Shown: in pieces, positions 28,469 through 29,425 of the stretch
Position numbering within the stretch: position 1 is the stretch's first letter
How the letters are laid out: the number at the start of each line of letters is the position of its first letter
Source: Escherichia coli
Lineage (GTDB): Bacteria > Pseudomonadota > Gammaproteobacteria > Enterobacterales > Enterobacteriaceae
NCBI RefSeq assembly: GCF_044647545.1
Contig: NZ_CP172818.1
Length of the DNA stretch: 64,000 nt
Strand: one strand, 5' to 3'
Position numbers and translations under genes: made by a program
The notes under the pieces: model-generated
What the model was told of the DNA's origin: nothing
Databases searched by the model: none
Seen by the model: the letters and a program-made list of their open reading frames with translations, nothing else

Positions 28469-29425
28469 CTATATCTGATAATCAATTTCCTCTTCACTGT
28501 TTTCCATCACCTGCCGCTTGATATCCTCAACTGAAAGTCCTGCATTACAAAGTTCCAGAAAGCGCCAGACATAGTTACGCTGAAGTTGTCCTCGCTTCAG
28601 TCCCAACCAGACAGTATTAGCATCGAAAAGATGCCGCGTATCCAGGCGGATTAAATTCTTTTCCTCTTGTTCACCGCTGGATTGTTCGGCAACTAATCCG
28701 ATCCCAAGCCCAAGAGCAACATAGGTTTTAATGACATCAGAATCCTGCGCACTTAATATAATATCTGCCAGCAAACCTTTGCGGGCAAATGCGTCATCAA
28801 TACGTGAGCGCCCCGTAATCCCCTGTCGGTAAGTGATTAACGGCCACTTCGCTATTGATTCCAGCGTCAATGGTGTAATTTGCGTCAAGGGATGATCGTG
28901 TGGAACAAGCAAACTATGGTGCCAACGAAACCACGGGAAGGCGACGAGCTGCGGGTCATTACTCAAACGCTCGCTGGCGATACCAATATCAGCTTCACCA
29001 TTATGCAACAACGTCGCAATTTCCTGTGGCGTCCCCTGGATTAGCTCGAGCCGAACCTCCGGGAAAAGTTCGCGAAAAGCTTTAATGACCTCTGGCAAGC
29101 TATAACGTGCCTGAATATGCGTCGTTGCAATAGTGAGAACGCCAGACGTATCGTTGGTAAACAGGTCTGCAAGCCGACGAACATTACTGGCTTCATTGAG
29201 AATACGTTCTGCAATGACCAGTAATGCTTTGCCCGGTTCAGTCATGCCCAGCAGTCGCTTACCTCGTCGAACAAATATTTCGATGCCAAGTTCATCCTCC
29301 AGTTCCCGAATATGACGGCTGACGCCTGACGCCTGACTGTGAGGTAAAAAGCATATTCGCAACCTCTGTCAGGTTGTAATCCTGACGTGCAGCTTCGCGG
29401 ATTATCTTTAGTTGTTGGAAATTCA
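28469..29425 (-). pseudogene. cbl: LysR-type regulator Cbl with N-terminal frameshift (7-bp repeat expansion)
   Basis: GTG-NFQQLKIIREAARQDYNLTEVANMLFTSQSGV then frame is lost at CTGACGC x3 (29319..29339); downstream frame continues SRHIRELEDELGIEIF... to the C-terminus. Confidence 0.7.

Follow-up and report, generated by a model that had tools for sequence, protein, structure and literature searches.

A 7-bp tandem duplication frameshifts the sulfur regulator gene cbl in a sub-lineage of Escherichia coli ST648

A regulator gene whose reading frame is lost inside a short tandem repeat raises the question whether the repeat acts as a reversible genetic switch or is the trace of a single mutation that was passed on by descent. 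The Escherichia coli DNA considered here (the window, a stretch of 64 kb that was analysed as a whole) contains such a locus. An earlier note on this DNA had named the gene as the LysR-type regulator cbl, had attributed the loss of frame to the gain of a 7-bp unit by slipped-strand mispairing, and had suggested that the tract could be a contingency switch. An explanation of the locus should account for the structure of the repeat, its distribution over E. coli genomes, and the consequences for sulfur metabolism.

The plus strand reads CTGACGCCTGACGCCTGACTG at 29319-29339, that is CTGACGC CTGACGC CTGACTG, so that the tract is made up of two perfect units and one partial unit with 5 of 7 matching positions (2.7 units). 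The extra unit can be either of the two perfect 7-mers and is not assignable to one of them. On the minus strand cbl opens at the GTG at position 29426 and reads NFQQLKIIREAARQDYNLTEVANMLFTSQSGV before the frame shifts after residue 33, within the HTH_1 domain (residues 3-63). The short peptide encoded from the native start is without the recognition helix and aligns with the Cbl model over positions 1-35 only. Deletion of one 7-mer in silico gave an uninterrupted open reading frame of 316 codons. As it stands, the locus has no full reading frame that encodes both the HTH_1 and the LysR_substrate domain, and it is classified as a cbl pseudogene and not as a functional member. The window sequence, its open reading frames and the in-silico repair bear out in every detail what the earlier note had described: the repeat and the broken frame, the restoration of the frame by a return to two copies, and the position of the 7-bp gain inside the N-terminal helix-turn-helix. 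The coordinates are collected in Table 1.

Table 1. Positions of the cbl lesion, the resulting reading frames, neighbouring genes and the lineage marker in the window.
Feature	Coordinates	Strand	Remarks
Three-unit 7-bp tandem tract	29319..29339	-	Minus strand CAGTCAG GCGTCAG GCGTCAG; wild type has two units
cbl pseudogene	28469..29426	-	958 bp (951 + 7); repaired product is a 316-aa Cbl
Frame from native GTG	29292..29426	-	33 native and 11 aberrant residues (RRQPSYSGTGG), then stop; 44 aa
Out-of-frame cbl remainder	28469..29362	-	Mechanical ORF of 297 codons
nac, intact	29528..30445	-	From the ORF and the RefSeq annotation of the identical MS6198 sequence (locus offset 25269)
tRNA-Asn	28356..28431	+	Nearest feature 3' of cbl, opposite orientation
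Derived synonymous SNP in hisD	58622..58622	+	A, with G in other genomes; 29 kb from cbl; hisD protein accession unchanged

A scan of the window for tandem runs (period 4-12, at least 12 matching bases) detected two, one of which is the period-7 self-match of 12 bases at cbl; none was found in 50 shuffles. The other run, (GCTG) x 4.5 at 59848-59865, lies within hisC according to coordinate mapping to the genome of strain MS6198.

The identity of the gene as cbl was confirmed with the repaired 316-aa protein, which scores 683.2 bits against the Cbl equivalog model NCBIfam NF009324 (cutoff 491) over positions 1-316 of 316. Its score against the CysB model is 332 bits, under the cutoff of 436. 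Pfam places HTH_1 at residues 3-63 and LysR_substrate at 90-293, and the C-terminal domain matches the cofactor-binding domain of Cbl in PDB 2fyi (E=6e-143). The surroundings are those expected of Cbl. The gene is found just downstream of nac, on the same strand and between tRNA-Asn genes, in the conserved nac-cbl arrangement of other E. coli. The tRNA genes of the window, tRNA-Asn(GTT) at 13812-13887, 26532-26607, 28356-28431 and 30771-30846 and tRNA-Ser(CGA) at 12731-12820, show the asnT/W/U/V and serU arrangement that is normal for this part of the genome, and a search with Rfam near cbl found tRNAs only. Because there is no protein gene on the cbl strand before the downstream tRNA-Asn, no polar effect of the frameshift is expected.

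To count alleles, a 121-bp query across the tract was compared with 5,417 complete E. coli genomes. The three-unit allele was present at 100% identity over the 121 bp in 28 of them, and 5,388 carried the 114-bp two-unit form. Reference cbl alleles thus carry two units, as the earlier note had presumed, and the comparison with these 5,388 genomes identifies the difference as a true 7-bp insertion. In the identical MS6198 locus RefSeq labels cbl as a pseudogene, 'frameshifted', and the two-unit relative strain 144 encodes an intact Cbl. Assemblies found through a protein index were checked directly: three units occur in FUJ80154, which is one of the 28, and in four assemblies outside the collection (FUJ80155, a 2014 draft and two recent genomes). 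Carriers come from several continents, with sources that include humans, dogs, a dolphin and wastewater. Among public contigs, 371 have a gene call for the 258-aa remnant of the carrier haplotype and 133 have one for the intact protein of identical sequence.

A sequencing or assembly artefact in the source genome of the window, against which the earlier note had cautioned, would be conceivable in view of private oddities elsewhere in the window. The poly-C patch at 20611-20628, the 9-bp gap at 34656 and the divergent patch at 56520-56718 suggest imperfect assembly or recombination. However, the identical allele in 28 independently sequenced complete genomes and in the four further assemblies that were checked directly, together with its co-segregation with independent SNP markers, refutes this caveat, and we give an artefact virtually no chance.

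The window departs from its closest relatives at several places away from cbl. A yersiniabactin island (HPI) of roughly 30 kb is inserted at asnT in all 28 carriers of the collection and is missing from the window. The window also has a longer yeeJ. Around this tRNA gene (asnT, 13812-13887), positions 12284-18964 are 99.7% identical to the K-12-like genome BHUCD01, while the flanks match ST648. A K-12-like segment with ST648 flanks suggests that the genome of the window is a mosaic carrier outside the collection. At 34656 the sequence switches from ST648-type to K-12-like (99.9% up to 36546), exactly at the K-12 IS5 site and with a 9-bp gap relative to ST648. An IS2-sized element at 36244-37575 occupies the same yoeA site as in K-12, and the Ag43 island beyond about 36.5 kb is only about 97% K-12-like. 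The two segments with 99.7-99.9% identity to K-12 could also be explained by a reference-guided chimera with K-12. Such guidance would sit poorly with an island that reaches just about 97%, which makes a natural mosaic the more likely of the two. The window also has an odd patch at 20611-20628, at the end of the yeeJ-like ORF, where a run of ten C (GCTACCAAACCCCCCCCCCTCC) stands against TGCTATTTACCAAACAGTTCC in MS6198; an error of assembly could account for it. Compared with five ST648-type genomes, only the window has two SNPs at the start of sbcB (50095 and 50106) and a short stretch of strong divergence, with indels, between yeeZ and hisL (56520-56718). Positions 1-12700 amount to 12,700 bp, against 12,743 in all close relatives, and align in two pieces; by this comparison about 43 bp of the dcm-zinT block are missing from the window.

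The lineage of the carriers can be derived from typed isolates and from sequence blocks at a distance from cbl. FUJ80154 and FUJ80155, both carriers, belong to ST648, phylogroup F (PMC8694128). Across the ycaO-mukB core block of MS6198 (25 kb, about 1.15 Mb from cbl), 59 genomes, including a strain named 'ST648' and IMT16316, are essentially identical, and the next best genome reaches 98.9%. Within this group of 59, three units are found in 28 genomes, one unit in 1 and two units in about 30. The duplication therefore marks a sub-lineage of ST648 and not the entire ST. IS-free queries were used in place of a 25-kb query around cbl, whose IS and island content misled the ranking. A tree of ST648 from core blocks of 8-25 kb was dropped, as about 1 SNP per 25 kb is too few for a topology. 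The carrier clade was defined by two derived SNP markers, linked or sparse (in hisD and rpsA), rather than by a whole-genome phylogeny.

The window, MS6198, FUJ80154 and CUVET20-PYO4 have the hisD marker in common, and the two-unit genomes AH50 and 144 lack it. Species-wide, the derived A was found in 28 of 5,411 genomes. These are 27 three-unit carriers (of 28) and CUVET20-PYO4; none of them has two units. The sole carrier without it is EC488 (NZ_CP109874.1, 1905000-1940000). In this strain every protein allele of the his-yeeA block beside the O-antigen cluster differs, yefM-yoeB is present and an IS1 is located in the O-antigen region; the marker is missing because the whole his-yeeA block has been replaced by recombination. 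The second marker, a C>A change in rpsA, occurs in 7 of 5,425 genomes, each of which is a carrier. The carriers are 100% identical across 8 kb around cbl, and about nine ST648 genomes with two units have the same local dcm-serU haplotype as the carriers. The evidence points to a single mutation that would have been inherited clonally, with no revertants detected among the marker genomes. Since this clade rests on markers and not on a genome-wide tree, a revertant that had also lost the hisD marker by recombination could escape detection.

The frameshift leaves a long remainder of cbl, and it may be asked whether a Cbl fragment without the helix-turn-helix, started at Met59 or at an upstream TTG, could titrate ligand or pair with CysB in a dominant-negative manner. 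The remainder of 258 or 297 codons is undegraded and encodes a complete LysR_substrate domain, and gene callers report it as a protein of 258 or 297 aa. Its intactness has another reason, as the remnant is undecayed because the clade is young, in agreement with the identity of the carriers over 8 kb. The TTG at 29362 abuts its only GAGG (spacing 0), and the GAGG ahead of Met59 is about 19 nt upstream, so neither start has a plausible ribosome-binding site. Met59 is the first in-frame ATG and is located 3' of nearly all of the HTH domain, which a restart there would miss. A restart with the HTH preserved was likewise ruled out by the spacing of Shine-Dalgarno motifs, as read from the sequence. 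Nothing indicates that a fragment is made, and we regard an active one as very improbable. In public protein databases the remnants stand under ordinary names, such as 'HTH-type transcriptional regulator cbl' for AOM70375.1 and 'CysB family transcriptional regulator' for BCX33525.1. These 258-aa and 297-aa database entries are an annotation warning, as they could mislead presence/absence analyses.

Phase-variable genes with simple sequence repeats are known in Haemophilus, Neisseria and Campylobacter. The cbl tract resembles such contingency loci in that a change in the number of repeat units within the coding region shifts the frame, and the earlier note had raised the possibility that frequent unit changes reversibly turn the sulfonate regulon OFF and ON. 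The number of units has changed at least once, from two to three, and two perfect tandem copies slip more readily than the wild-type tract. A one-unit assembly also lies within the carrier clade. This allele is found in exactly one of the 5,417 genomes, CUVET20-PYO4 (NZ_CP115376.1, about 1225460), which differs from MS6198 over 40 kb by 3 SNPs and a clean 14-bp gap and belongs to the carrier clade since it has the hisD marker. If real, it would be a contraction from three units to one, and it is still out of frame. In the same assembly the essential gene kdsB has lost its frame through a 2-bp contraction of a (TC)n run. Short-repeat indels of this assembly are therefore unreliable and both may be assembly errors, and the one-unit allele was down-weighted as a sign of recurrent switching.

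Other observations speak more directly against a switch. A tract of 2.7 units is not the long perfect tandem array of a contingency locus. No four-unit allele was found in the 5,417 genomes when synthetic queries were used, and the three-unit allele, rather than recurring in separate lineages, is confined to one ST648 sub-lineage. Frame-restoring polymorphism was not seen: two-unit, in-frame ON variants number zero among the 28 genomes with the hisD marker and the 7 with the rpsA marker. Folding of the repeat DNA revealed no hairpin beyond shuffled controls. Cbl is moreover a metabolic regulator and not the usual type of surface or host-interaction gene. With so few units, no four-unit allele, no two-unit revertant in the hisD-marker clade and one lineage in 5,417 genomes, the proposal of a reversible contingency switch did not hold up, and we consider it highly implausible. 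Rare loss of one unit under selection is possible in principle, as ordinary duplication instability that requires no dedicated switch.

A single slippage event provides the preferred explanation. The wild-type sequence CTGAC-GC-CTGAC contains 5-bp direct repeats that could have misaligned during replication, by which 7 bp would be duplicated; slipped-strand mispairing, as suggested in the earlier note, fits the gain of one 7-bp unit. This event would have taken place once, at cbl codons 33-35, in the ancestor of the ST648 (phylogroup F) sub-lineage. The +7 change shifts the frame in the recognition helix of the LysR winged helix-turn-helix, and translation from the native start would end after 44 residues. 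Presumably no DNA-binding Cbl is made, which would render the allele null, and this null allele would have been inherited clonally and become fixed in the sub-lineage worldwide. Taken as a whole, a single slippage duplication that gave a clonal null cbl with a predicted sulfonate and taurine defect is in our judgement very probable. It resembles the lineage-specific slippage pseudogenes of clonal pathogens in its origin by duplication at short direct repeats, the frameshift, the clonal inheritance and the use as a marker, and there is no difference in kind from these.

The physiological consequences can be predicted from the genetics of K-12. In a review of LysR-type regulators (PMC11495319, with reference to van der Ploeg 1997 and 1999) Cbl is described as the activator of PtauABCD and PssuEADCB. 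Both target operons, ssuEADCB and tauABCD, are intact in the carrier MS6198 and have no pseudogene flags. Carriers are predicted not to grow when an aliphatic sulfonate or taurine is the sole sulfur source, because Cbl is needed for expression of ssuEADCB and tauABCD during sulfate or cysteine starvation. The defect would be regulatory and should be complementable. CysB also binds the ssu and tau promoters, and residual expression of these operons may occur via CysB when Cbl is missing. The closest known counterparts are cbl null mutants of E. coli K-12, with the same gene, the same nac-cbl locus and loss of the same activator of tauABCD and ssuEADCB, for which no growth on taurine or alkanesulfonates is expected (Iwanicka-Nowicka and Hryniewicz 1995; van der Ploeg 1997, 1999, as cited in PMC11495319). 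In contrast to these mutants, the ST648 allele is natural, is a 7-bp duplication and is fixed in a clinical sub-lineage, and its phenotype is a prediction.

The spread of the allele could suggest that loss of cbl was not a neutral passenger but was positively selected and aided the success of this multidrug-resistant sub-lineage of ST648. The broken allele is more often encountered than the intact allele of the same haplotype (371 against 133 public contigs), and carriers span hosts from humans and dogs to a dolphin as well as wastewater. Yet sampling is strongly biased to resistant clinical isolates. With one origin and no second occurrence in another lineage there is no signal of convergence, and abundant sulfate and cysteine in host niches would make neutral loss a sufficient explanation. 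Positive selection is therefore considered unlikely. A more elaborate scenario, in which cbl loss was adaptive in the emergence of the globally spread ST648 sub-lineage, perhaps by rewiring sulfur-starvation or cysteine metabolism in host niches, and in which the perfect 14-bp tandem offers a selectable way back to function, by loss of one unit, where sulfonates are the only sulfur source, appears distinctly improbable.

The cbl lesion is real, stably inherited and, in its mechanism, an ordinary slippage pseudogene. The frameshift itself is already flagged in RefSeq. In the searchable literature no paper that describes a cbl pseudogene in ST648 was found, and searches on cbl pseudogenes, cbl in ST648 and the sulfur phenotype of ST648 gave nothing relevant. 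ST648 is an extraintestinal E. coli clone that carries carbapenemases and is spreading internationally. The 7-bp insertion sets apart one of its sub-lineages (28 of about 59 complete genomes of the ST648 group) and is usable as a marker in PCR or in silico. The carriers represent a natural cbl knockout with which it can be asked if the Cbl regulon matters for survival in the gut, the urinary tract and the environment.
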